Shown: piece by piece, positions 2,782 through 28,658 of the stretch
Position numbering within the stretch: the first letter of the stretch is position 1
Layout: the number at the start of each line of letters is the position of its first letter
Virus record (IMG/VR): IMGVR_UViG_3300025767_001799
Coordinates: 1-28,658 of that record
DNA: 28,658 bases
Reading direction: 5' to 3' (one strand)
Source: a virus
Taxonomy: Duplodnaviria; Caudoviricetes
Program-made: the position numbers and the translations under genes
Notes under the pieces: model-generated
Seen by the model: the letters and a program-made list of their open reading frames with translations, nothing else
Told to the model about the DNA's origin: nothing
Databases searched by the model: none

Positions 2782-3058
2782 AGGTTATATAACAGAAAGA
2801 GGCGAAGACTCTAAAGGCCATTTTATCAGCACCGAAAAGGGTGCTGGTATGACAGCCAAAGGAGTTAAGGCTTTTAGGAGTAAAAATCCTGGAAGCAAGC
2901 TTCAAACTGCTGTTACTGGAAAGGTAAAGCCTGGAAGTAAAGACGCAAAACGACGTAAGAGCTTTTGTGCAAGAATGACCGGGATGCCCGGTCCTATGAA
3001 GGATGAAAAAGGTAGACCAACACGTAAAGCAATGTCGTTAAAAAGATGGAAGTGTTAA
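2768..3058 (+). CDS. Conserved T4-like phage small basic protein, probably packaged in the head
   Basis: RRKSFCARM...RWKC motif that I recall from marine T4-like phages. The N-terminus MLNFKGYITE resembles the T4 capsid-targeting sequence. Confidence 0.65.
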   Translation: MLNFKGYITERGEDSKGHFISTEKGAGMTAKGVKAFRSKNPGSKLQTAVTGKVKPGSKDAKRRKSFCARMTGMPGPMKDEKGRPTRKAMSLKRWKC

Positions 3059-3330
3059 TGGCTGACTATAGCAGATTAGATCGGATTGAAGAAAAGATTG
3101 ACAAGTTAAACGATTCTATGGTTACTATTGCCAGAACAGAAGAAAAACTTGTGAATATTGAGCAAAAATATTCTGCTCAATATGATCGCATGAACAAGTT
3201 TTCTGAAAAACTTGATGCTCTTGAAAAGCTTACATCTGAAAATTCTCAGACGGTAAATACTATTAATAAACTCTTTTGGGTTGCACTAATTGCAGTGGTT
3301 GGTGCCATTGCCACTAACCTCTTAATGTAA
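3058..3330 (+). CDS. Coiled-coil protein with C-terminal transmembrane helix (XhlA/holin-like architecture)
   Basis: RLDRIEEKIDKL heptads and a C-terminal hydrophobic segment LFWVALIAVVGAIA. ATG at 3058 overlaps the upstream TAA. Confidence 0.55.
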   Translation: MADYSRLDRIEEKIDKLNDSMVTIARTEEKLVNIEQKYSAQYDRMNKFSEKLDALEKLTSENSQTVNTINKLFWVALIAVVGAIATNLLM

Positions 3331-3341
3331 GGAAACAAAAA

Positions 3342-4430
3342 ATGAACTATAAAGATATCTTAGCAATGGGTGAGGCATATAAGAAAGTTGCTGAAGCCGG
3401 TTGCAAAACTCCTAAAAAAGAAGCTATGGATCCAGTGAATGCCAAAGAACTTAAAGGCAAACACAAAGATCGTAAAGACAAAGACATTGACAATGATGGC
3501 GATGTTGATAAGTCTGATGAGTATCTTCACAAGCGCCGTAAAGCTGTTTCTAAAGCCATTAAAGGTAAAGGAACCGAGACTGAAGTTCAAACACAAGAAG
3601 CAGTTGAAGATATGGACGAAGGTTCAATCAAAGGATCTGGCACCGATCGTAAAGCAGTTCTTAAAAAAGCTTATCGTTCAGGCGAACAAAAAACTCGTGA
3701 TTTTTACAAAGGTACAATTACCCCAGCTCCTAAAACTAGTGATAAAGGAATTAAAAAGGCATTTGACAAAGGCACTGGATCAAATGATGGTAGCTCGGCA
3801 GCAAAAGGTGCCGCCCGTTCTACGTCCCAAGATACATTACGTGGAACAGAACATGGTAGATCAGAACCTTCGAATTCTGGTAAAACACACTATAAAACCC
3901 AAACTCATAGTAGTAAAATGAGTTCCATCCGTAACGCCAAAAAGGGTAAATTGCCTGAGTCTATTGGAATGGACGAAGCTAAAGATCATGGCAACATGAA
4001 CAACGGTTCTCCTTCAGGTGAAGGTCTTTCTCCTTCTGCAAAGAAAGAGCTTGCTAACAAAACGCCTATGAATCCAGCAACTGATGAATTAGCTACAAAT
4101 GCTCTTAACTTTAAGACCTTTAAAGCTATGACTAAAAAAGCAGCTATGCGTTCAAATGATAATGCCGCTGGTGATAAAAAAGCTATTGCATCTGCAACAT
4201 CAGTTAAAGAAGGTGCAACTGGCATGAATAAGCGTCATACTGTTGAAATTGATCACGATCACGAGCATGATCCCGATGCTAAAAAGCACAATATCCAGCT
4301 GGATCTTATCGGCAGTGGACCCTCGCGAGGGGCCCATGCAAGCGGTAAGAAAAAGGATCTTCAAAAGTATTTAGCTATACATTACGGGGGACGTGAACAT
4401 GCAAAAGAAGTTCATCCTGAAGTACATTAA
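3342..4430 (+). CDS. Modular charged virion/internal head protein
   Basis: Good SD (AAGGA). EF-hand-like DIDNDGDVDKSDEY motif. Repeated xxE junctions (MDE twice, VKE, LPE). Confidence 0.55.
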   Translation: MNYKDILAMGEAYKKVAEAGCKTPKKEAMDPVNAKELKGKHKDRKDKDIDNDGDVDKSDEYLHKRRKAVSKAIKGKGTETEVQTQEAVEDMDEGSIKGSGTDRKAVLKKAYRSGEQKTRDFYKGTITPAPKTSDKGIKKAFDKGTGSNDGSSAAKGAARSTSQDTLRGTEHGRSEPSNSGKTHYKTQTHSSKMSSIRNAKKGKLPESIGMDEAKDHGNMNNGSPSGEGLSPSAKKELANKTPMNPATDELATNALNFKTFKAMTKKAAMRSNDNAAGDKKAIASATSVKEGATGMNKRHTVEIDHDHEHDPDAKKHNIQLDLIGSGPSRGAHASGKKKDLQKYLAIHYGGREHAKEVHPEVH

Positions 4431-4796: not shown

Positions 4797-5168
4797 ATGA
4801 ATCATGATGATGATTTACTAGAAGAAGATCTGGTAATATTTGCAGCGAAACACTATTACTCGCCTTTAGGTAAAATCGACCCTGAAGAGTTTTATGCGGA
4901 TTTGAAAAGATTTAAATATATCAAGCGCCTTGTTAATAGGCATTTGGAAACTGGTGTGTTAGCCGACCGCTTGATATTAAACCATCTTATAGTCATTTTC
5001 AATGTATTTGGAAACTATGGCGCTATTAGGATTTTAGGTTTAAAGCTTACCGATGAGCAATGGACTGTAGTTAAGCCGTTTCTCCAGTTTTTGAAATATG
5101 TTCGTGATAACCAACTATCTGACATTGAATCGGATCAGATAGTAGTAGATAAACTTAAGAGGATATAA
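4797..5168 (+). CDS. Conserved T4-like phage hypothetical protein
   Basis: EFYADLKRFKYIKRL...RLILNHLIV motif that I recall from T4-like myoviruses. Tight gene packing. Confidence 0.65.
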   Translation: MNHDDDLLEEDLVIFAAKHYYSPLGKIDPEEFYADLKRFKYIKRLVNRHLETGVLADRLILNHLIVIFNVFGNYGAIRILGLKLTDEQWTVVKPFLQFLKYVRDNQLSDIESDQIVVDKLKRI

Positions 5169-5764
5169 TGGGTATTATCAAACGCGCCGGTGATTTAGTC
5201 TATACATTTAGATTTCTCACATTGCTCACTACACCATTCGATAAAACGAAAGCGTTTGAAGCTGGTATTATTGATGCTGATGGTAAACGCAACAAGCAAT
5301 TTAATACAAATACCATGGAAGACCGTGAAGCGTATAAGAACTTTTATACTCCTTTCCATAGACTTGTATTTAATGTAAAACGTCTTATGGCAAAGGCTCC
5401 TGGTGGAAGCAGTAGTATCGCTTCATATGCTGCCGGCTTATATCTTATTAAAGAAAACTATAGTGTATCAGAGAAAAAGATCCTTAAAGGTCTTGCTGAT
5501 ATTGGTATTGATTCAGCAGATTTACTTGCAGAAGAAAATCAGTGGTTTGTATTAGAAAATAATCAGTTATCACCTGGCGTCTATATTTTAAAGAATGAAA
5601 AAATCATTGATAATGTCGATATAATGGTTGCCAAAGGATCTAAAGTTAAAGTCGCTGAAGATTCTTTCCCAGTTGGTGATATTTTTGGAATGAATATTTA
5701 TGAAGCGACTCATATTAGAACAAATAAAAAAGTGTACATTACTTCATCGGAGATTGTTAGATGA
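5168..5764 (+). CDS. Conserved T4-like phage hypothetical protein
   Basis: YTFRFL...GIID..G...YTPFHRLVFNVKR motif. Stop/start overlaps on both sides. Confidence 0.65.
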   Translation: MGIIKRAGDLVYTFRFLTLLTTPFDKTKAFEAGIIDADGKRNKQFNTNTMEDREAYKNFYTPFHRLVFNVKRLMAKAPGGSSSIASYAAGLYLIKENYSVSEKKILKGLADIGIDSADLLAEENQWFVLENNQLSPGVYILKNEKIIDNVDIMVAKGSKVKVAEDSFPVGDIFGMNIYEATHIRTNKKVYITSSEIVR

Positions 5765-19461: not shown

Positions 19462-20240
19462 AAAAGTTAATTTATCAGGTATATCTTGGAAAGAAATCTA
19501 AACTTTATGATCACTGTATTTCAAGTGTAGCAAAGTATGCAAAAAGAATTGGTGCTGAACATATCGTTCAGCGCACGCCGCTTCTTATGATTGCGCCAGA
19601 TCCATTTACATCAAATCGTAGCAAAGAGTCATACCAAAAGCACGGTGGGTTTCTCCCTATTTACGAAAAGGAAAACGCCTTCGCTTATTTTAAAGGTTAT
19701 GATCAAATTGCAATTATTGACGCTGACATTTATATCCGAGAAACTGCTCCAGATATTTTCGAAGACTTAGATCAAAAATATGATTTCGGAGCTGTGTTAG
19801 AGCGTGATATGCCTATGACTAATCAGTATCAAGCGAAGATAAAAAATTATTCTAACATGCAATATGGAATGAATCCTATTCGCCAGTTGTTTGATTGGAG
19901 TAATACTTCCGGAGCTAACTTTTATAATATGGGTATGATGGTTATGAACAAATCATTTGCTACTCATTTAAAAGGTCAAACTCCTATGCAATTCCTACGT
20001 AGACCTGAGTTTAAAGCATTCATTGATGGCGTCGGCGCATGGAAGTGGTCTACTGACCAAACTCTTCTCAATGTTTTTGTTAAAGAAAATAAAGTCAAAT
20101 GTAAAAATATGGATTGGAAGTGGAATGGACTTTATACCGCAAATCCATTTATTAACGAGTGCCATTTTGTACACTTCTTCTTGAAAGATAAGCTTCCAAA
20201 CCGTGGTGAGAATGTAGAAGATCTTATGAAGAATGTCTAG
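19458..20240 (+). CDS. GT-A glycosyltransferase (GT8/GT34-like)
   Basis: IIDADIY (DxD), YNMGMM, DQTLLN, WN, and HF. Confidence 0.75.
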   Translation: MKKLIYQVYLGKKSKLYDHCISSVAKYAKRIGAEHIVQRTPLLMIAPDPFTSNRSKESYQKHGGFLPIYEKENAFAYFKGYDQIAIIDADIYIRETAPDIFEDLDQKYDFGAVLERDMPMTNQYQAKIKNYSNMQYGMNPIRQLFDWSNTSGANFYNMGMMVMNKSFATHLKGQTPMQFLRRPEFKAFIDGVGAWKWSTDQTLLNVFVKENKVKCKNMDWKWNGLYTANPFINECHFVHFFLKDKLPNRGENVEDLMKNV

Positions 20241-20907
20241 AACTCTTTTTATACATACGCCAAAGGCAGCTGGAACTACGATAGCAGCGTCGTGCCCGGT
20301 CGTTTCGGTTTCTGAGAGATACTTTAGTAAAGATAAGATTAAAGAAGATAGGATGAATCCGAAATCATACTATACTCTTAATTCACCTCAATCATTCATA
20401 AAGCATGCACCATATAGTTACCTTGATAAACATCAAATTTCTAGATTTGATAAGGTATTTACCACAGTCAGAAATCCATGGTCTAGGTTGGTTTCCATGT
20501 ATCATCATGCCGATGCTATATCTCATAGGATCAATAAAACATGGTATTATCAAGATAAAATTTCATGGGACGAATATCTAAATAGGATGGATTCATTTAG
20601 AATGAATTCTTCGTATTATTGGAATCATCCATATGACCAATGGGGAATACAACTTGATTGGATATCTGTTGGAAGTAAAGTAAAAGGCGACGTTTTAAGA
20701 TACGAAAATTTGCAAGAAGATGTTAATGCATATTTTGATAAAAACATTATTTTGAATAAAGAGAATGCTGGTACCTATAATAAAGACTATAGAGAATATT
20801 ATACAAAAGAACAGCAACAAAGAGTAGCAGAGTGGTTTAGACTTGACATTGAATATTGGGGATTTACATTTGAATCTGGAGCTACTAGAAATTATTGGAC
20901 AAAATAA
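20233..20907 (+). CDS. Sulfotransferase (Sulfotransfer_2 type)
   Basis: FIHTPKAAGTT, VRNPWSRLVSMY, and RYENL. Confidence 0.85.
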   Translation: MSRTLFIHTPKAAGTTIAASCPVVSVSERYFSKDKIKEDRMNPKSYYTLNSPQSFIKHAPYSYLDKHQISRFDKVFTTVRNPWSRLVSMYHHADAISHRINKTWYYQDKISWDEYLNRMDSFRMNSSYYWNHPYDQWGIQLDWISVGSKVKGDVLRYENLQEDVNAYFDKNIILNKENAGTYNKDYREYYTKEQQQRVAEWFRLDIEYWGFTFESGATRNYWTK

Positions 20908-21620
20908 TGAATAAAATAAAGCATTTTGTGCATATACCAAAAAATGGTGGTTTGACTATCCGATATTCGCCATTTCTTAAAGACAGAATGATTGTGTCTA
21001 CATCAATGACGCATAAATCGGCTGAATATACGTCTGGCCTATTAGCTAAGATGCAGGAGACTGGTGATCATCCCGGTATTGAACACGCCCGTTGGAGAGA
21101 TATTAATCCGCAGTTGACCGAAAAATATCAATCATTTGCTATTATTCGTAACCCTTGGGATAGAGTTGTTTCAAGATACTTCTTTGCTAAAAAGGTTATT
21201 GAGGTAGAGAAAAAAGAATCATCATCATATGCTGATATTAGTTCATTTGAAGCATTTCTTGAGGAGCGCCATAAATGGGGAAATCAAGAATATATGTGGC
21301 ATAGAGCTATTCGTGGTTGGTATCCAGCGACGAATCATGTTACTGATGATTTTGGCATTTTAAAATGCGATATGTTATCATTCGAAAATTATAATAATGA
21401 TGTTTGCGATTATTTTAATTTAAAAGAAATGTCAAGAGCAAGGAATGTTACTGCACTAAACAAAGGTTCTTATAAAGACCTATATAATGGCAGAACAATC
21501 CAAATTATAGCTGACTGGTATAAATCTGATATAGATATGTTTGGATACGATTTTGATTCTGGTCCAACTAAAAACACTTGGAGACACACGCGTGAGCTAT
21601 TTGAAAGAACTATTCGATAA
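20907..21620 (+). CDS. Sulfotransferase (Sulfotransfer_2 type)
   Basis: FVHIPKNGGLT, IRNPWDRVVSRY, and D...FGY.F. Confidence 0.85.
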   Translation: MNKIKHFVHIPKNGGLTIRYSPFLKDRMIVSTSMTHKSAEYTSGLLAKMQETGDHPGIEHARWRDINPQLTEKYQSFAIIRNPWDRVVSRYFFAKKVIEVEKKESSSYADISSFEAFLEERHKWGNQEYMWHRAIRGWYPATNHVTDDFGILKCDMLSFENYNNDVCDYFNLKEMSRARNVTALNKGSYKDLYNGRTIQIIADWYKSDIDMFGYDFDSGPTKNTWRHTRELFERTIR

Positions 21621-22212
21621 GTATAATTGCGATAAAAGCGCAAAACATAATTATCATGAGGTATATGAATCTCTCTTTGAGCCTTATCAAAATGATCCCA
21701 TCAACTTCTTAGAAATTGGTGTTTTTAAAGGCGCCTCTACTGCAGCAATTCATGAATATTTTCCTAATGCTACGATTTATGGATTGGATATTTTTGAACG
21801 AGTTGATGTAAATGAAATTGATATTCTGAAAGAAGATAGGGTGAACTGGCTTAAAGGCAATTCACTAAATCCATCTATTGCTGATGCTATTGAAGCTAAA
21901 TGGCCAGGTATTAAATTTGATTTTATCCTTGATGATGGTGCCCATTGGCCAGAAGCAAACCGTAAGACTATGGAAAACATAATTCAGTTTCTTGCAGAAG
22001 ACGGCATTTATATTATTGAAGATGTGTTTCCTATGTCTATTATGACACAATCGGAACTTAATCTCCCTTGGCTAAAGCAATCTCCAGACAAATATGATAT
22101 GCTTAAGTATTATGAATTTGAAGATGCTATGAAAAAAACTGGTCTTGCAATTAACCGCTACGATCTTAGAGGAAGTAATGCTCCCGACAGTTATGTTGTG
22201 ACACTATCATGA
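21592..22212 (+). CDS. Class I SAM-dependent (sugar O-) methyltransferase
   Basis: DK...H.Y, FLEIGV, ILDDGAH, and YIIED. GTG start at 21592 after a GGAG SD. Confidence 0.8.
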   Translation: MSYLKELFDKYNCDKSAKHNYHEVYESLFEPYQNDPINFLEIGVFKGASTAAIHEYFPNATIYGLDIFERVDVNEIDILKEDRVNWLKGNSLNPSIADAIEAKWPGIKFDFILDDGAHWPEANRKTMENIIQFLAEDGIYIIEDVFPMSIMTQSELNLPWLKQSPDKYDMLKYYEFEDAMKKTGLAINRYDLRGSNAPDSYVVTLS

Positions 22213-22907
22213 GAGCATTTGGAATTACAATGTGGGATCATGAAGGATCCGAAAACGGATTTAAGAGACTTCAGCAAAGTTGGGAATCTTCTAAGCAATC
22301 GTTCCCATTAAAAAGATTTACTGCTATTACGTATGATGACAATTTAGATTACATTATGGATTCATATAAAATCAAATGGAATTACCCATGGGAAGAAGCA
22401 GAGCTTGACTGGACTTCTGGATTACTTAAAAGTCCGTATCCAACAAGAAATCCAAAAGCTAGAATTGCGTGTGCCCTTAGTCATTATGCTCTTTGGAAGA
22501 AATGTTACAATGAGGACGAATCAATTCTGGTCCTTGAACATGACGCAGTTTTTACTAAAACCTTAAATTATAAGTTTATTCTTGATTCAAAGTATGATAT
22601 AATTGGTATTAACGATCCTAGAGGTGCCACAAGAAAGTCGAGAGATTTCTTTATTGAAGTAGATAGAAATAAAGATTACATTCAAAGACCTCCCGTGATT
22701 GATAACATGCACGTCCCTCAAGGTATTGCTGGAAACAGTGCATACATAATGAAACCAAGTGGCGCTAAAAAGATGTTAGATCTGGTCCATGAATATGGAC
22801 TATGGCCAAATGATGCTCTTATGTGCAGACAACTTGTTCCTACTCTTGGCGTCACGAAAGAATATTATACAAAGGTATTAGGCTTCGGCTCAACAACATC
22901 GCTATGA
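22209..22907 (+). CDS. Glycosyltransferase family 25-like
   Basis: ACALSHYALW...LEHDA and AYIMKPSGAKKM. Confidence 0.8.
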   Translation: MRAFGITMWDHEGSENGFKRLQQSWESSKQSFPLKRFTAITYDDNLDYIMDSYKIKWNYPWEEAELDWTSGLLKSPYPTRNPKARIACALSHYALWKKCYNEDESILVLEHDAVFTKTLNYKFILDSKYDIIGINDPRGATRKSRDFFIEVDRNKDYIQRPPVIDNMHVPQGIAGNSAYIMKPSGAKKMLDLVHEYGLWPNDALMCRQLVPTLGVTKEYYTKVLGFGSTTSL

Positions 22908-23551
22908 AATCATATGTAATAACAATTCTAGATAATCCTCGGTCGGTTCAAGTAGCTGACCGATGTATAGCATCCGGTAAGAAGTTTGGTATTGACATTG
23001 AAAAGTTTGCAGCGGTAACACCAAAAACACATGACCCTGAGAAATATGCAGAGTCATTAGATATTCCTACCGATGGATTCAAAGAGATTTATTCTCGCTA
23101 TGAAAATTGCTTGTCTGCATTTCTTTCTCATTATCTTCTATGGGAAAAGTGTGTAAACTTAAATGAACAACTGCTAATTCTTGAGCACGATGCAATTATT
23201 GTCAATAACATTCCAGTCTTTGCTGGATATAAGTATCTGTTAAATCTTGGCGAACCTAGTTATGGAAGAGCAAGGCAACCTATGACACTTGGTGTTGGAC
23301 CTCTTACATCTAAGCAATACTTGCCTGGTGCTCATGGATATATGATTAAACCTTCAGGCGCTAAGATGCTTATGGACAGAGCACAACTAACAGCGATGCC
23401 AACTGATGTGTTTATTAATAAAACTAATTTTCCTTGGCTAGAAGAATATTATCCATGGCCTGTAAAAGCAGTCGATTCGTTTACTACAATTCAAAATAAG
23501 CATGGATGTGCTGCTAAACATAATTACGGTGTGACTTATGAAATCATCTAG
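22904..23551 (+). CDS. Glycosyltransferase family 25-like
   Basis: AFLSHYLLW...LEHDA, GYMIKPSGAK, and PTD. Confidence 0.8.
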   Translation: MKSYVITILDNPRSVQVADRCIASGKKFGIDIEKFAAVTPKTHDPEKYAESLDIPTDGFKEIYSRYENCLSAFLSHYLLWEKCVNLNEQLLILEHDAIIVNNIPVFAGYKYLLNLGEPSYGRARQPMTLGVGPLTSKQYLPGAHGYMIKPSGAKMLMDRAQLTAMPTDVFINKTNFPWLEEYYPWPVKAVDSFTTIQNKHGCAAKHNYGVTYEII

Positions 23552-24170
23552 ATTATTCATTACTGGTTGTGATTCTAATACAGAATGGATGCTTCCGTGG
23601 TTTGTTGAAAACTTTAAGAAATATATGCCAAATGAGCAATTGATGATTTTTGACTTTGGAATGGAGAGCAGTCTATACCCAGAACTTAGAAAGTCCCATA
23701 GAACGAGTGATGTCGGCTGGTTTAAAAAACCTAGTGCTATGATGAAAGCCTCTAACCATGCATATCAAGTTTGTTGGTTAGATACTGATTGCCATATTCA
23801 AGCAGATATTAGTGATATCTTTGATCATGTAGAAACAAATAAAATTGCTATGGCGGTTGATAAACCTTGGACGGATAGAAGGCAGGAAAAATGGCACAAT
23901 AGCGGTGTTGTTGCCTTCGAAGGTTGCCCATCTATTCTTGGCTTCTGGGCAACAGAGGTAGGTAGATTTCCTAAGGTCGGGGATCAAGAAGTTTTGCATG
24001 AAATGGTAAAAGATGGTATGAAAAGAATGATACATATCACAGACTTACCGCATGAATATAATACATTACGTCTTGATGTATTGGATGGAACTACTCCTAA
24101 GAATATCAAGGTTATGCATTGGACTGGTGCTAAAGGCAAAATGAAAATTAAGGAATTGATGAATGAGTAG
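23538..24170 (+). CDS. GT-A glycosyltransferase (GT8-like)
   Basis: WFKKP, WLDTD, NSGVV, GDQE, YN, and HWTG. Confidence 0.75.
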   Translation: MKSSRLFITGCDSNTEWMLPWFVENFKKYMPNEQLMIFDFGMESSLYPELRKSHRTSDVGWFKKPSAMMKASNHAYQVCWLDTDCHIQADISDIFDHVETNKIAMAVDKPWTDRRQEKWHNSGVVAFEGCPSILGFWATEVGRFPKVGDQEVLHEMVKDGMKRMIHITDLPHEYNTLRLDVLDGTTPKNIKVMHWTGAKGKMKIKELMNE

Positions 24171-24756
24171 AATTGTTCACGTTATTGGAAATGGTGATAA
24201 TTCGGCCTTGTATAAACCGGCAAAGGGTATTAAGATCACATGCAATCTTCCACCATTTTCCGTAGAAAATGTATATGGCTCTTGCATGGTTGATTTTAAA
24301 ATGATGCGAGCGATGCATGAAGGCAGCGTGCAAGTTCCAGGTGAATGGATTCTAGGATTCAGGCCTCACAAATATCTTGAGATGTATCCCAGCATGAGAC
24401 TACAATGGGCTAATCAAATTAAGGAGTTTTACCTTGACAAACCGCCTTATGTTGCAAATTATACCGACTTTAATTGTGGCCACATGGCTGTTCATTACTC
24501 GGCCAATAAACTTAAAGGCACCGAGATTCACATGTATGGATTTGATTCCATATTTGATTTCTCATTAAGAAGTTGTACTGATTTCTATTTACAATCAGAT
24601 CGTGGTGACACAAACAACATGAGATTGATTAATAACTGGCGACCAATTTGGAATGGCATTTTTAATCAGTTCAGTGAGACTCAATTCGTGCTTCATCATA
24701 AACACGCCGATGTTAAAATAAAAACCCCAGAAAACGTAGAAGTAGTAACTAAATAA
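24163..24756 (+). CDS. Sialyltransferase/Maf-like glycosyltransferase-related protein
   Basis: VIGNG N-terminal motif, CN, N.G..A, and IHMYGFD. Confidence 0.5.
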   Translation: MSRIVHVIGNGDNSALYKPAKGIKITCNLPPFSVENVYGSCMVDFKMMRAMHEGSVQVPGEWILGFRPHKYLEMYPSMRLQWANQIKEFYLDKPPYVANYTDFNCGHMAVHYSANKLKGTEIHMYGFDSIFDFSLRSCTDFYLQSDRGDTNNMRLINNWRPIWNGIFNQFSETQFVLHHKHADVKIKTPENVEVVTK

Positions 24757-25952
24757 TGGCAATTAATCTCACATTGAAGCAAGTTGACAACGTTATAACT
24801 AAAACTGAAGGTTATTGGGTTTATAACGATAAGGGTGAAAGATTTCTAGATCTTACGTCTGGAGGTTATGCGTTCCCATTGGGCTATGGTAATAAAGAAA
24901 TAGCAAGTGCGGTATATGAGTCATTAGTTACTGTTGGCAGATGCCATAATAGAATGGGATATACTATGCCACTTGTTGAAGAAATGGGAGATTTTCTTTG
25001 CGAGTCAGGCGGTTGGGAAAGCCATTGCTGGACTATTACCGGAACTAGTGCCGTTGAATGTGCCGTCAATATGGCAGATATGTATTGGGATAGAACTGGT
25101 GATGGTAGAAGAGGTATTCTTTCCTTTGGACTGGGATGGAACGGTGCCAGTAATCTTACTAAAAAAATGAGTGGTATGTATCCAGTAGAAGGAACTAGGG
25201 TACATATAGTCGATACTCCAATCTGGGAATTTGCTGAAGATCAGGCAGAAGAAGAAAAAATCACGCTCTTTGAAGTTGCTAAAAAAGTTGAAGAAGAAAA
25301 AGATATTGGTTCAATCATTATTAATCCGGCGCCTTGGTTCTATGGAGTTCATGTTTGGTCATTTGACTTTTGGAGAAAACTTAGAAAAATATGTGATGAA
25401 CACGGCTTACTACTGATTTTAGACGATGTTGCATCGTGTTGGGGAAAGGCTAAAGCATTCCATAGTCATGATACAATTCTACCACCGGATGTTAGATCTG
25501 ATATTTCGTGTTTAGGCAAAGCTATTACTGCTGGTTATGCACCACTTGCCGCAGCCGTGGCAAATAAGAAAGTAACTGAGGTTATTAGAGATGGATTTTC
25601 ATATGGCCATACGTTCCAACCTTTAGTCTCAGGCGTAGCTGCAATGAAAGCAACTACTCAAATTATCCAGAGAGATAATCTTTTGGAATACGGTCAAGTG
25701 ATTGAAGACCGTTTAAATTTGTTATTTCAAGAATTCGTTGAAGACGGTGAAGTATCCCATTATAATGCTCATGGGCTGTTAGGTATCATGTATTTAAAAG
25801 ATAAGAATGCAGAAATAAATCTAGCGGATAGATATTATGGTGAAAGCTATACACGAAAAAATACGCCGAACATCAGAGTTTGTGCCCCTTTGATTGCAGA
25901 TGATGAGTATTTCTTTGAATTAAAAAAATTAATGAAAGAAATGATAATTTAA
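24756..25952 (+). CDS. Class III PLP-dependent aminotransferase
   Basis: EGYWVY...FLDLTSG, GTSAVE, LLILDDV..WGK, D...LGKAITAGY (PLP lysine), and GHTF. Confidence 0.88.
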   Translation: MAINLTLKQVDNVITKTEGYWVYNDKGERFLDLTSGGYAFPLGYGNKEIASAVYESLVTVGRCHNRMGYTMPLVEEMGDFLCESGGWESHCWTITGTSAVECAVNMADMYWDRTGDGRRGILSFGLGWNGASNLTKKMSGMYPVEGTRVHIVDTPIWEFAEDQAEEEKITLFEVAKKVEEEKDIGSIIINPAPWFYGVHVWSFDFWRKLRKICDEHGLLLILDDVASCWGKAKAFHSHDTILPPDVRSDISCLGKAITAGYAPLAAAVANKKVTEVIRDGFSYGHTFQPLVSGVAAMKATTQIIQRDNLLEYGQVIEDRLNLLFQEFVEDGEVSHYNAHGLLGIMYLKDKNAEINLADRYYGESYTRKNTPNIRVCAPLIADDEYFFELKKLMKEMII

Positions 25953-25954
25953 GG

Positions 25955-25990
25955 TTTACACTAGTTTGAGCATGTGTTAGTATATAAATA
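25955..25990 (+). promoter_or_regulatory. Early-type promoter overlapping a T4 late-type TATAAATA box
   Basis: GTTTACA, 17-bp spacer, TAGTAT (TGn extended); TATAAATA at 25983-25990. Confidence 0.6.
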
Positions 25991-26015
25991 ATCTCTACAA
26001 TAGAGGATTAAACAT

Positions 26016-26072
26016 ATGCCACAATACGACGATCCCTGTGATTGTGTCGAACATTGGATTATGTATCTTTAA
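26016..26072 (+). CDS. 18-aa micropeptide MPQYDDPCDCVEHWIMYL
   Basis: AGAGGA SD; first ORF after the promoter; its stop overlaps the SD of the next gene. Confidence 0.5.
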   Translation: MPQYDDPCDCVEHWIMYL

Positions 26073-26081
26073 GGAAATGAA

Positions 26082-26546
26082 ATGAAACTATTGACGACAA
26101 CAATTATTGCCACAATGATGGCTCCCGTGGCCTTTGCTGGAGAAACAGTAAACGCTCGGGTTAAAGATCATTATAAAACAGTATATGAGCACATTCCAGT
26201 GACAAACCGCTACTGTGAAAACGTTGAAGTTCCTGTATATGGAACACGACAAAAGCAGGGCAACGCAGCTGAAGGCGCCATTCTTGGAATGATCATCGGT
26301 GGACTTGCAGGTAAAGCTGTCACTGGTAAAGATAATGGCGCTGCAGCTGGTGCTATTATGGGTGGAGTAATCGGTGCCGATAAAGGTGCCAAACCAAAGA
26401 ATGAAACAGTTGTTACTGGCTATCGTACCGAACGCCAATGCACTGACGTTACCGAATATGTGAACAATCCAAAAAATGTTTACGATTATTCAACTTTGGT
26501 GTTTACATTGGACGGAAAACAATATAGAATAGATTTTAATAAATGA
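26082..26546 (+). CDS. Exported glycine-zipper (2TM) protein
   Basis: Signal peptide ending AFA, GAILGMIIGG...GAAAGAIMGGVIG zipper, and a Cys pair. Confidence 0.75.
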   Translation: MKLLTTTIIATMMAPVAFAGETVNARVKDHYKTVYEHIPVTNRYCENVEVPVYGTRQKQGNAAEGAILGMIIGGLAGKAVTGKDNGAAAGAIMGGVIGADKGAKPKNETVVTGYRTERQCTDVTEYVNNPKNVYDYSTLVFTLDGKQYRIDFNK

Positions 26547-26553
26547 GGTTAAT

Positions 26554-26630
26554 GACTCCTTAGCTCAGCTGGATAGAGCAAGTGCCTTCTAAGCACTAGG
26601 TCGAGGGTTCGAATCCTTCAGGGGTCGCCA
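26554..26630 (+). tRNA. tRNA-Arg (anticodon UCU)
   Basis: Full cloverleaf: AGTGC-CTTCTAA-GCACT anticodon arm, TTCGAAT T-loop, encoded CCA. Confidence 0.95.
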
Positions 26631-26636
26631 TATTTT

Positions 26637-26721
26637 GTCAGTGCAGGTTTGCTCTTATCAATAGGTATCAAGGCGTCATACCATCAGATAAGTATGTGGT
26701 TCGATTCCACAACTGGTACCA
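26637..26721 (+). ncRNA. tRNA-like RNA with elongated non-canonical anticodon arm
   Basis: Acceptor GTCAGT/ACTGGT plus A-CCA; perfect T arm TGTGG-TTCGATT-CCACA; mini D hairpin GCA-GGTT-TGC; long stem CTTATC..GGTAT / ATACC..GATAAG. Confidence 0.6.
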
Positions 26722-26738
26722 ATTAAAAGGAACGATTG

Positions 26739-26915
26739 ATGACAGTGTATGCAATTGAACGTAACGGTAATCTGGTTAAACATTATGTTTTCGAAGGTGA
26801 CATTACTAAAATGCACACAAGACCACATTCGGTCGTTGATTTGACTTTTGATAATGAGAAATCAGCATTGGAAGTTGCAAATAAATTAAACGCTACTGTT
26901 GTTAAAGTAGCATAA
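26739..26915 (+). CDS. Small hypothetical protein (58 aa; not in ORF track)
   Basis: AAGGA SD; MTVYAIERNGNLVKHYVFEGD...VVKVA. Confidence 0.55.
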   Translation: MTVYAIERNGNLVKHYVFEGDITKMHTRPHSVVDLTFDNEKSALEVANKLNATVVKVA

Positions 26916-26931
26916 CAAAAGGAATTATATT

Positions 26932-27225
26932 ATGAAAAATTACTTTGATTTTAAAGGTAAAGCAAAACGTCAAGAATATTGGGCAGTACTTATTGCTTCA
27001 ATCGTTGCAGGTATTATCGGGATTGTTATTACTGAGACTATTCCACTTGTAGCACTTGTTGTTCTTGTTGTAACTCTTTGGGTATATCTTGCAACAACTG
27101 TTCGTCGTCTACGCGATGCTGACTTGCACCTTGCATGGATTATCACAGTATTTCTTCCGTACATCGCAACTGTTGCTGCCATTGTATTTGGCATTGTAGG
27201 CAGTGCAGAGCAGAAAGAAGACTAA
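26932..27225 (+). CDS. DUF805 family membrane protein
   Basis: YFDFKGKAKRQEYW...VRRLRD signature with TM helices. Confidence 0.85.
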   Translation: MKNYFDFKGKAKRQEYWAVLIASIVAGIIGIVITETIPLVALVVLVVTLWVYLATTVRRLRDADLHLAWIITVFLPYIATVAAIVFGIVGSAEQKED

Positions 27226-27226
27226 T

Positions 27227-27499
27227 ATGGAACCAGTAACTTTCGCATTTATGTTTCTAATCGCCGTAGCCATGGGTGAAGAGAATAAAACACAGGCCGA
27301 ATATATTGATGAGCTTCATTATGAAATTATTGAACTTGAGACTTCGACTGATACTTTGAAGGAAGAAGTTGCCGATCTTGAATCTTGGAACTATCGTCTA
27401 TCTGGTGAACTTGCAGACCTGGCTGGGCGAGAGAATATGAATAATGCCTCTCAGCAAGATCAGATTGATACTTTGATTCGTCGTGTAATGTCAGAATAG
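27227..27499 (+). CDS. Membrane-anchored coiled-coil hypothetical protein
   Basis: N-terminal hydrophobic stretch followed by an acidic heptad region. Confidence 0.55.
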   Translation: MEPVTFAFMFLIAVAMGEENKTQAEYIDELHYEIIELETSTDTLKEEVADLESWNYRLSGELADLAGRENMNNASQQDQIDTLIRRVMSE

Positions 27500-27572
27500 A
27501 TAATAAGCGTAATAAGAATGGTGTGGCGACCTAACACGCCCGTGTAGAGCCACGGTTAGCTCTACAACTTAT

Positions 27573-27655
27573 GCTCCCATGGTGGAACGGTAGACACGTT
27601 TGACTTAAAATCAAATGCCTAGTGCGTCCCGGTTCGAGTCCGGGTGGGAGTACCA
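27573..27655 (+). tRNA. tRNA-Leu (anticodon UAA)
   Basis: Cloverleaf with variable arm: TTTGA-CTTAAAA-TCAAA, TTCGAGT T-loop, CCA. Confidence 0.93.
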
Positions 27656-27675
27656 AATTTAAAATGAGACTAATT

Positions 27676-27813
27676 ATGAAATATTTGCTGATCTTTACCT
27701 TGTTGGCTGGTTGTGCTAATATACAAGACACCACGACAACTATGGATAAAGTGATAATTGCTACATCTCTTGTGGTCTTGGCGCTCGGCGCCTCCAAAAT
27801 AACGCGACAATAA
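27676..27813 (+). CDS. Small lipoprotein (45 aa)
   Basis: MKYLLIFTLLAG-C lipobox and a second hydrophobic helix. Confidence 0.55.
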   Translation: MKYLLIFTLLAGCANIQDTTTTMDKVIIATSLVVLALGASKITRQ

Positions 27814-27818
27814 TATAT

Positions 27819-27895
27819 GGTTTGTTGGTGTAATGGTTAGCACAAAGCGCTCATAACGCTTCAGGACGTGGGTTCAATTCCCCGACGAACTACCA
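27819..27895 (+). tRNA. tRNA with CAU anticodon (Met or Ile2)
   Basis: GGTTTGT/ACGAACT acceptor, AAGCG-CTCATAA-CGCTT anticodon arm, irregular T stem, CCA. Confidence 0.85.
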
Positions 27896-27982
27896 AAAAA
27901 ATATAAAAAAATACATTTTAACTCTAAAATAGACTGAAAAAACGTATATATAATGCTATAGATTAAAAGGAATACAACTTCA

Positions 27983-28087
27983 ATGACTATCCATTCCACA
28001 TATTCACTCCCGACAAAGAACGTGCAATCCCGCGAATGCTTTGCCATGGGTGGCTGGAATATTGATATTCACGAGAGGGTATTTTAA
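27983..28087 (+). CDS. Putative attenuator leader peptide (34 aa, contains all 20 amino acids)
   Basis: AAAGGA SD; MTIHSTYSLPTKNVQSRECFAMGGWNIDIHERVF*; stop lies inside the antiterminator arm. Confidence 0.7.
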   Translation: MTIHSTYSLPTKNVQSRECFAMGGWNIDIHERVF

Positions 28088-28124
28088 GAAGACATTTTTA
28101 ACAAGTCTGATTTTAACAACCCTC
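28075..28124 (+). promoter_or_regulatory. Antiterminator hairpin
   Basis: Nested pairings GAGGGT (28075-80) / ACCCTC (28119-24), TTAAGA (28084-89) / TTTTAA (28111-16), and AGAC (28090-93) / GTCT (28105-08). Confidence 0.6.
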
Positions 28125-28150
28125 CAAGTGAAAACTTCGGAGGGTTTTTT
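28118..28150 (+). terminator. Intrinsic terminator (attenuator)
   Basis: AACCCTCC-AAGT-GAAA-ACTT-C-GGAGGGTT with a GNRA loop, ending in a T6 run. Confidence 0.85.
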
Positions 28151-28155
28151 ATTAT

Positions 28156-28226
28156 GGTGTCACTGATGGTTCAGACGGTTCTCTCATAAGGAACTAGGGA
28201 AGATTCGATTTTTTCTGACACTACCA
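28156..28226 (+). tRNA. Compact tRNA with CAU anticodon and truncated D arm (71 nt)
   Basis: GGTGTCA/TGACACT acceptor, CTGA-TGGT-TCAG mini D arm, GTTCT-CTCATAA-GGAAC anticodon arm, GAAGA-TTCGATT-TTTTC T arm, ACCA. Confidence 0.7.
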
Positions 28227-28247
28227 AGAAAAATTTCAATTTAGGTG

Positions 28248-28276
28248 TTTACAAACCTTTTCGTTTAGTATAGAAT
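28248..28276 (+). promoter_or_regulatory. Early-type promoter
   Basis: GTTTACA, 17-bp spacer, TAGAAT, followed by a GGAG SD. Confidence 0.65.
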
Positions 28277-28303
28277 AACACTATCAACAATGGAGAATAC
28301 AAT

Positions 28304-28459
28304 ATGACACTTTCTTTTGATCCACTTGACCCATATGTAAAAATGGTGATGGAAATCTCTGATGAAACTCTTACTCGGTTCTTCGACTCAATGGGCATTG
28401 ATATCAATCTTGATGCTAATGACGAAGACGAAGGCGTTCTATACGATTGTGAAGCGTAA
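28304..28459 (+). CDS. Small acidic early protein (51 aa; not in ORF track)
   Basis: Own promoter and GGAG SD; MTLSFDPLDPYVKMVMEISDETLTRFFDSMGIDINLDANDEDEGVLYDCEA. Confidence 0.65.
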   Translation: MTLSFDPLDPYVKMVMEISDETLTRFFDSMGIDINLDANDEDEGVLYDCEA

Positions 28460-28474
28460 CAACAAATAAAATAT

Positions 28475-28551
28475 CTATGTATAGCTCAGTCTGGTAGAGT
28501 ATCGCACTTGGAATGCGAAGGCCGGAGGTTCGATACCTCGTAGGACAACCA
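28475..28551 (+). pseudogene. tRNA-Pro (UGG)-like gene with unpaired acceptor stem
   Basis: Normal D arm (TAGCTCAGTCTGGTAGAGT), TCGCA-CTTGGAA-TGCGA anticodon arm, T loop and CCA. CTATGTA and TAGGACA pair at only 3 of 7 positions. Confidence 0.65.
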
Positions 28552-28570
28552 AAATCCAAAGGAATATGTT

Positions 28571-28658
28571 ATGAAAAAAGTTGTAGAAAACGGCCTTGTT
28601 GCAGTAATCTATTCGCCAGGTTATGGCGCAGGTTGGGCAACTTGGGCAGATGGTGTAG
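28571..28658 (+). CDS. Conserved phage hypothetical protein (3'-truncated)
   Basis: AAGGA SD; VAVIYSPGYGAGWATW motif that I recall from diverse phages; runs off the window end. Confidence 0.65.
   Translation, partial: MKKVVENGLVAVIYSPGYGAGWATWADGV

Follow-up and report, generated by a model that had tools for sequence, protein, structure and literature searches.

The stretch of DNA analyzed here (IMG/VR record IMGVR_UViG_3300025767_001799, referred to as the window in its full length of 28,658 bp) is a fragment of an uncultured viral contig with an estimated completeness of about 14% (CheckV). Close to its end, a short open reading frame (ORF) is followed by an intrinsic terminator and a tRNA-shaped gene with a CAU anticodon (Table 1). 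The ORF, the terminator, and a hairpin competing with the latter form the leader module that is the subject of this report. The peptide encoded by the leader ORF contains all 20 amino acids, the set being already complete at D28, as stated in a preliminary description of the locus, whose count of 29 distinct codons in 34 positions was likewise reproduced. The preference for G/C-ending codons noted there is reflected in a GC content at third codon positions of 0.52–0.53, compared to 0.30 in the long ORFs of the window. Among the 112 ORFs of 28–40 amino acids encoded in the window, the leader is the only one with all 20 kinds, the next best being one ORF with 19 and two with 18. Four composition models put the chance of finding 20 kinds in 34 residues at 1.3e-3 to 1.7e-3, and a flat 1/20 model puts it at 6.9e-3; the earlier estimate of about 0.5% was thus in the right order of magnitude. 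Each amino acid occurs one to three times and no codon run is present in the leader, unlike the cluster of regulatory codons expected of a ribosome-mediated attenuator.

The terminator is located as previously described, being capped by a GNRA-type loop (GAAA) and ending 5 nt before the CAU gene. It was overlooked by a simple terminator scan, probably because of the bulge in its stem. Local folding of the segment from the last nine codons of the leader to the 5′ arm of the terminator reproduced the extended hairpin of the preliminary description, which consists of the outer helix GAGGGT/ACCCTC and the inner helices UUAAGA/UUUUAA and AGAC/GUCU. The GAGGGT element is designated region 2, its partner in the terminator 5′ arm region 3, and the terminator 3′ arm region 4. 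As in known attenuators, an intrinsic terminator is thus placed between the leader and the following gene, and structure prediction yields a mutually exclusive antiterminator, whose upstream strand would be covered when a ribosome reaches the end of the ORF. In addition, folding predictions suggest that, until region 3 has been transcribed, region 2 pairs with a segment of the 5′ untranslated region that contains the putative ribosome-binding site and may correspond to a region 1 of the trp type.

Table 1. Positions of the leader module and neighboring features in the window.
Feature	Position	Strand	Characteristics
tRNA-Arg	26554		ARAGORN call
tRNA-Leu	27573		ARAGORN call
tRNA-Met(CAT)	27819		ARAGORN call
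Promoter-like motif	27939-27958	+	AAAACGTATATATAATGCTA; -10-like TATAAT at 27949-27954; no -35 match at standard spacing
Shine-Dalgarno (SD)-like AAGGA	27967-27971	+	11 nt before ATG; read from sequence
Candidate region 1	27969-27981	+	5′ untranslated region/ribosome-binding site segment; predicted pairing with region 2 before region 3 is transcribed
Leader ORF	27983-28087	+	34 codons + TAA; product MTIHSTYSLPTKNVQSRECFAMGGWNIDIHERVF; 20 amino-acid kinds; 29 distinct codons
Region 2 (GAGGGT)	28075-28080	+	5′ strand of the antiterminator; ends 4 nt before stop codon
Antiterminator hairpin	28075-28124	+	GAGGGT/ACCCTC (28119-28124) plus inner UUAAGA/UUUUAA and AGAC/GUCU; local fold -13.1 kcal/mol
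Terminator	28118-28150	+	12-pair stem, one bulged C, GAAA loop, U6 tract; -16.5 kcal/mol
tRNA-shaped gene, CAU anticodon	28156-28226	+	reduced D arm, encoded CCA; cloverleaf-like fold -19.0 kcal/mol
Promoter-like site TTTACA-17-TAGAAT	28248-28276	+	consensus scan, 10/12 matches; past the gated tRNA

Conservation of the module in marine phages

Relatives were collected by exact-pattern scans of viral and metagenome contigs with the terminator, the CAU tRNA, and a degenerate terminator pattern as queries. The module was detected in 26 loci of uncultured marine phage contigs, which represent 11 distinct DNA versions from about six lineages. Two other patterns were of little use: an 18-mer from the anticodon arm led to six new loci, five of which were unrelated tRNAs and only one of which (L033) belongs to the family, and a degenerate pattern derived from the peptide gave chance matches in eight of nine loci. 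A profile search of 1.84 billion representative proteins recovered seven short members, including four new ones. In the GenBank phage collection, no DNA match to positions 27900-28300 was obtained, megablast with positions 20000-28658 returned only tRNA-Arg look-alikes, and tblastn with peptide P0003 found no match at E<=10. The corresponding part of one relative (L036, 1340-1620) only retrieved weak tRNA matches from these phages; the best of them, the tRNA-Met of Cr30, was discarded as a potential cultured relative, being preceded by a coding sequence of 120 amino acids and lacking the leader module. The leader peptide did not match any family in PHROG, and a search with the neighboring 398-amino-acid protein identified one identical contig ending inside the gene and three relatives of 34–35% identity, which do not contain the module.

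An ATG-started ORF of 28–38 codons is present in all 11 versions and ends 28–33 nt before the core of the terminator. The ORF, its place relative to the hairpins, the terminator, and a later tRNA gene are retained in every version, in agreement with the expectation of the preliminary description that ORF and pairing should be conserved in relatives. The length differences among the ORFs comprise whole codons, and for each of the 20 pairs with pS>0, the ratio of non-synonymous to synonymous changes (pN/pS) stays under 1, with values from 0.06 to 0.74; the window and its relative L044, for example, differ by four synonymous changes and one non-synonymous change. A common peptide pattern is kept, which reads M-x-I-H-F-T-Y ... 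A-V-S-C-D-x-F-x-M-G-x-E-W ... E-G. No other overlapping ORF was found to be conserved across the versions, and a 57-amino-acid ORF on the minus strand (27874-28047) was rejected as a real gene because it is not conserved. As judged from these sequence comparisons, the module is conserved and under selection.

Conservation extends to the two hairpins. All 108 cells of the terminator stem are paired in nine aligned sequences, and three of its pairs covary by changing on both sides. If the 3′ arm of the terminator is omitted, region 2 folds onto region 3 in nine of nine distinct sequences, with local energies of the antiterminator of -13.1 to -20.9 kcal/mol versus -13.6 to -19.3 kcal/mol for the terminator; the antiterminator is retained in the full-length minimum-energy fold in two of them. 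The six core pairs of the antiterminator are formed in 46 of 47 cells, and the helix is extended in a lineage-specific manner by GAGGGUUUU/AAAACCCUC, GAGGGUACCU/AGGUAACCCUC, and GGAGGCUC/GAGCCCUCC, the extension pairs being UUUU/AAAA in L037, UACCU/AGGUA in L036, and CUC/GAG in L048. L041 and L043 have C-G in place of an inner U-A pair, accompanied in L041 by a change in the terminator 3′ arm. In seven of seven sequences, no other part of the leader complements the terminator 5′ arm as well as the last codons do, and shuffled sequences equal this match in 0–19 of 300 cases. Note that region 2 is not read in the same frame in all lineages, since it is translated as GAG AGG GTA in the lineage of the window and as GAG GGT or GAG GGC in L037, L036, and L043; the retention of GAGGG despite this frame change indicates that it is conserved as RNA. 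Its distance to the stop codon is 2–9 nt, and that from the stop codon to the U-tract 53–58 nt (eight of eight sequences each). The predicted probability of region 2 pairing with candidate region 1 reaches 0.41–0.99 in the window, 0.96–1.0 in L035, and 0.95–0.97 in L041 (for six of seven bases), while weaker pairing is predicted in L037, L036, L043, and L048.

Parts of the stretch are also covered by six RNA runs in the form of contigs, which show neither transcript ends nor strand and are uninformative for the uncovered parts. One of these sequences, record 2 of run X19, aligns to window positions 28118-28153 and carries the terminator hairpin with two differences, but is flanked on both sides by unrelated sequence, which raises the possibility of a nearly identical hairpin in a different setting.

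With regard to the start signals, AAGGA or AGGA is kept in all aligned lineages at a distance of 11–14 nt from the ATG in most of them and of 6 nt in L043. The two neighboring genes of the window exhibit a shorter spacing (7–8 nt) than the leader (11 nt). The preliminary description of an SD-equipped ORF is upheld for the ORF, whereas the SD spacing had to be corrected to a rather long one. Further upstream, GTATATATA is invariant in five aligned relatives, and its place is taken by TATAAATA in L036 and L043 or by TTGACT-N-TATAAT in L048. The idea that the motif at 27939-27958 represents a recurrent phage promoter was abandoned, as the window contains it only a single time, and one occurrence of TATAAATA was counted, compared to 3.7 expected by chance.

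Amino-acid composition of the leader peptides

The DNA versions and the protein profile search together provided 13 distinct leader peptides of 28–38 amino acids, four of which (P0003, P0005, P0008, and P0011) come without DNA context. Nine of them contain all 20 kinds of amino acids, three contain 19, and one contains 18. The preliminary description of a leader with all 20 amino acids is consequently valid for the window and for nine of the 13 peptides, but not for the other four. Random peptides of the same lengths are expected to contain 14.6–16.3 kinds, and the chance per peptide is 1e-3 to 2e-2.

The peptides are related to each other, and their diversity was evaluated by a permutation test in which the consensus residues and the sharing of derived residues were fixed and the identities of the derived residues were permuted. 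The summed number of kinds is 215, compared to 196 +/- 3.2 after permutation, and the observed value was reached in none of 3000–4000 permutations. This result holds with a slack of two columns allowed for misalignment as well as without the two most distant peptides, and if only the columns before region 2 are considered, the observed diversity was reached in 0–3 of 3000 permutations. The leaders of relatives thus exceed the permutation expectation, as would be required for the excess of amino-acid diversity proposed in the preliminary description. Since the permutations never reach the observed diversity, the replacements appear to compensate each other in a way that maintains the kinds of amino acids. 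In line with this, those amino acids that are present only once (Leu, Lys, Asp, Pro, Gln, and Arg) shift their position rather than vanish.

Some codons that are rare in the phage recur in the leaders, namely CTC for Leu, CCG for Pro, and AAG for Lys; CTC and CCG show relative synonymous codon usage values of 0.3 and 0.4, respectively, in the genes of the window. Among seven leaders compared (window, L035, L037, L041, L048, L036, and L043), the single Leu codon is CTC in five and the Pro codon is CCG in six, at shifting positions. This recurrence may reflect either RNA structure or the choice of sensitive codons.

The downstream tRNA gene and its surroundings

The gene following the terminator was previously described as tRNA(CAU). 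It has a tRNA-like shape, and its homologues in L036 (1539-1610) and L048 (341-412) are both called as tRNA-Met(cat) of 72 nt, but in the window itself, positions 28156-28226 were neither recognized by ARAGORN, including runs at relaxed thresholds, nor matched by Rfam at E<=1. The homologue in G001, a complete relative of 201,055 bp, scores 24.7 bits, compared to a cut-off of 29 for Rfam family RF00005. The D arm of the CAU tRNA consists of a 4-bp stem and a 4-nt loop and lacks the 8-9 linker, and the anticodon loop CUCAUAA is invariant. Inspection by eye revealed compensating changes, with an acceptor G-C pair changed to A-T in L018 and a T-stem G.U pair changed to G-C in L007 and A-U in L018. 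The gene is identical in the window and the L006 group, their flanks being about 88% identical. A CAU tRNA of 71–72 nt, which may be specific for Met or Ile2, recurs beside the leader in most lineages.

A tRNA gene starts 5–13 nt past the U-tract in 10 of the 11 versions. The first gene after the terminator is the CAU tRNA in most of them and tRNA-Cys in L044 and L048, while L043 contains a hydrophobic ORF of 26 codons at this position, followed by the CAU tRNA. In G001, one tRNA-Leu and the leader are followed by 24 tRNAs identified by ARAGORN, which cover 19 amino acids, and the leader terminator is the only strong terminator on the plus strand inside this array. In a second relative (G002), the next terminator after that of the leader follows the last tRNA of the array. 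No promoter-like site is found in L044 between the tRNA-Cys and the next ORF. In the window, the promoter proposed earlier at 28248 is no more than a consensus match; the same hexamers are present at 26502 before the tRNA-Arg gene, and TTTACA is kept in relatives. In relatives, the gated tRNA is followed by a promoter-like site and a conserved element of about 40 nt of the type GAGGACGAAGAGAT...ATCTCCTC, found in L006 at 5130-5200, in L048 at about 250-330 on the minus strand, and in columns 455-534 of A1. This element may correspond to a small RNA or to the beginning of a tRNA precursor.

All long ORFs of the window are located on the plus strand and include genes for ribonucleotide reductase subunits and for an exonuclease of the RNase H/flap-endonuclease type, whose best matches (41–43% identity) are from T4-like marine myoviruses (Melnitz, HTVC008M, and cyanomyophages). 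The tRNA array is interleaved with small ORFs in the final 2 kb of the window. One of these (27664-27813, 49 codons) lies between the tRNA-Leu and tRNA-Met genes, stops 5 nt before the latter, and carries a lipoprotein-type signal (LLAGC). Another one codes for an acidic product of 51 amino acids (MTLSFDPLDPYVKM...) and is found at 28304-28459 in the window, at 4521-4699 in L006, and at 5029-5184 in L060, so that its location in the array varies among relatives. A further tRNA at 28478-28548 scores 41.6 bits with Rfam, but has a broken acceptor stem and is not called by ARAGORN; its anticodon is TGG. The equivalent place in L044, before the same ORF (MKKVVENG...), is occupied by tRNA-Cys. Some of the tRNAs called in the relatives are unusual, such as tRNA-Ile(tat) of 91–94 nt in L006 (3851-3944), L007 (3261-3351), and L043 (896-986; all called by ARAGORN), which is exceptionally long for a tRNA-Ile, or the tRNA-His called in L044 (917-990) with the odd anticodon atg. 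The tRNA arrays of the relatives are mosaics of shuffled cassettes.

Probable attenuation by a translating ribosome and comparison with known systems

The arrangement found ahead of the phage tRNA genes, in which a conserved leader ORF is joined to a terminator and to a hairpin competing with it, is best explained as a ribosome-operated transcription attenuator, to which we assign a probability of roughly 0.58. A ribosome arriving at the stop codon would cover region 2, leaving region 3 to pair with region 4, and transcription would end at the U-tract. A ribosome delayed at least four codons upstream would leave region 2 free to capture the emerging region 3, the terminator would fail to form, and the tRNA genes would be transcribed. 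With each amino acid represented one to three times and none in runs, the leader would therefore report the slowest of all charged tRNAs. The phage tRNAs would be the output of the switch, covering about 19 amino acids downstream of the leader in relatives, and would close a feedback loop on tRNA supply. Candidate triggers are falling levels of host tRNAs during infection, starvation, or a tRNA-cleaving defence, for which PrrC and PARIS were named in the preliminary description. The more far-reaching proposal that the leader is kept complete as a universal decoding sensor, which would turn on the phage tRNA genes whenever any single charged tRNA runs short, is put forward tentatively and at somewhat less than even odds. 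The attenuator reading of the preliminary description is partly supported by the comparison with relatives in terms of ORF, geometry, pairing, and diversity, whereas the presence of all 20 amino acids is not universal and the reach of the gating may be limited.

Several observations weigh against this interpretation. Those concerning the leader peptide start with the conserved peptide motif, which could indicate a role of the peptide itself, and with the four of 13 peptides lacking one or two kinds. Moreover, some kinds are located in or beside region 2, where a stall would mask this segment and thereby resemble completion of the leader; this applies to D28 of the window and to the sole Glu and Leu residues of L037 and L036, respectively. 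The part that could be stall-sensing holds 16–20 kinds, namely 19 in 27 residues in the window and 18/27, 19/29, 19/29, 20/27, 16/23, and 16/21 in the others, with a P value of only 0.06 for L043. Single codons should confer weak sensitivity to moderate starvation, as classical leaders use codon runs, and the spacing of 11–14 nt between the SD-like AAGGA and the ATG in most lineages is long. On the side of the RNA, the antiterminator of the window lineage is weaker than the terminator (-13.1 vs -16.5 kcal/mol). The covariation expected for an antiterminator was only partially recovered in the relatives: the pairing is kept, but its core is nearly invariant with a single covarying pair, and 16 of 500 shuffles score equally high. 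RNAalifold applied to six leaders predicts the terminator and two small hairpins in the ORF, but neither the antiterminator nor the large hairpin of the ORF body seen in single folds. The predicted pairing of regions 1 and 2 makes the state of a ribosome-free leader uncertain. Contigs from the RNA libraries X19 and X20 bridge the terminator, with read-through RNA and carry-over of DNA being inseparable. Finally, promoter-like sites after the first tRNA imply that only one or two tRNAs may be gated.

Among the alternatives, the locus may be a gene for an ordinary small protein that has a promoter and a terminator of its own and whose peptide is the functional product. It would have come to lie in a tRNA array by chance, and its diversity would be inherited from an ancestor with all 20 amino acids under purifying selection. 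The conserved peptide pattern and the pN/pS values below 1 are consistent with such a gene, other small ORFs with their own signals are found between the tRNAs of these arrays, and the window was picked for its complete set, making the first case an ascertained one. However, fixing the conserved residues in the permutations leaves the diversity unexplained (0 of 3000–4000), as are the pairing of the last codons in every lineage, the retention of the motif across a frame change, and the fixed distance from stop codon to U-tract. A further point against it is the missing PHROG family match of the peptide, and we consider this explanation unlikely. An equally small share of belief is given to a general sensor or timer of translation and its coupling to transcription, which would report initiation and movement of the ribosome and whose balanced composition would merely avoid reliance on a single amino acid. 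It draws on the same architecture as the attenuator reading of single charged tRNAs and on the lack of codon runs; upstream ORFs (uORFs) sensing general translation stress are known, such as toiL and bmrB in the accessible parts of the respective reports, and a pairing of region 2 with the ribosome-binding site region is predicted as long as region 3 is absent. For such a device, omitting rare amino acids would be the simpler solution, yet the leaders retain Trp, Cys, His, Tyr, and others or have regained them at other positions.

A sequence-specific arrest peptide in the style of TnaC or SecM, in which a ligand-dependent hold at or near the stop codon would set the choice between terminator and antiterminator, is reminiscent of the conserved W, F-x-M-G, and E-G motifs located 3–14 residues from the C terminus, with a possible likeness to TnaC; but the C-terminal residues vary by lineage, as does the reading frame over region 2, the motif is hardly recognizable in the two most distant members, and a ribosome arrested at the stop would do no more than fix the outcome as termination, making this mechanism very improbable. 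The same low standing applies to a region without coding function that serves a tRNA precursor as leader or processing element and contains the ORF by accident, since the better folding of the whole leader compared to shuffles (z = -2.5) and its position between probably co-transcribed tRNA genes are outweighed by the retention of ATG, frame, and stop position in 11 of 11 versions, the synonymous excess, the whole-codon indels, and the conservation of structure in only small parts of the ORF.

Attenuation by a translating ribosome would bear on the open question of the purpose of the near-complete tRNA sets in large phages and the timing of their use. If it is true, phage tRNAs would be made on demand through a switch that acts in cis and responds to the speed of the ribosome across all amino acids, which would provide the infected cell with a built-in feedback keeping its tRNA supply steady and would link phage tRNAs mechanistically to host tRNA loss or tRNA-targeting immunity. 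As a universal decoding sensor, the module would also be the first attenuator known to act on tRNA genes, and its leader the first known to be selected for breadth over a single amino acid, representing a new design principle of attenuation that relies on breadth instead of codon runs. Being self-contained within about 200 nt, it could be used as a compact reporter for the decoding capacity as a whole. Phage tRNA arrays are reported to counter tRNA-targeting defence by replacing depleted host tRNAs (PMC10264068, PMC11464382, and PMC11555353, as far as their accessible parts go), which would provide a reason for demand-driven expression; in the same parts, these studies concern the tRNAs themselves rather than an upstream cis-acting sensor. 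Judged by titles and the openings of abstracts, literature searches revealed neither a leader with all amino acids nor an attenuation of phage tRNA genes.

In its architecture, the module resembles the leader-peptide attenuators of enterobacterial amino-acid operons (trpL, hisL, leuL, thrL, ilvL/ivbL, and pheL; see also PMC1183508) in combining a short leader ORF, a terminator, and a competing upstream hairpin. It further shares with the enterobacterial systems the placement of the 5′ strand of this hairpin at the end of the leader, a distance of about 55 nt between stop codon and terminator, and a possible pairing of regions 1 and 2. Unlike them, it lacks a run of regulatory codons and contains 18–20 kinds of amino acids one to three times each, and the gated genes are those of phage tRNAs instead of biosynthetic enzymes. 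The broadest classical leader, to our knowledge, is ilvL, by which three amino acids are sensed. The pheM attenuator of pheST and the T-box riboswitches sense one amino acid or tRNA and control synthetases, the T-boxes binding tRNA directly and without a leader peptide. They are comparable to the module in using attenuation to adjust genes of the decoding machinery to the availability of charged tRNA, but differ in breadth and in not targeting tRNA genes.

More general translation stress is perceived by the uORFs or leaders toiL of topAI-yjhQ (10.1101/682021), bmrB of bmrCD (PMC4191407), and the uORF of whiB7 (10.1101/2023.06.02.543512). In the accessible parts of these reports, no selection for a complete set of amino acids is mentioned, and the sensors are triggered by antibiotics or by one enriched residue, with resistance or stress genes as their targets. 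As described there, they nevertheless share with the leader module that a stall anywhere in a short leader turns on the downstream genes and that the signal is not bound to one amino acid, and on the basis of these descriptions such general translation-stress uORFs are its nearest functional analogues.

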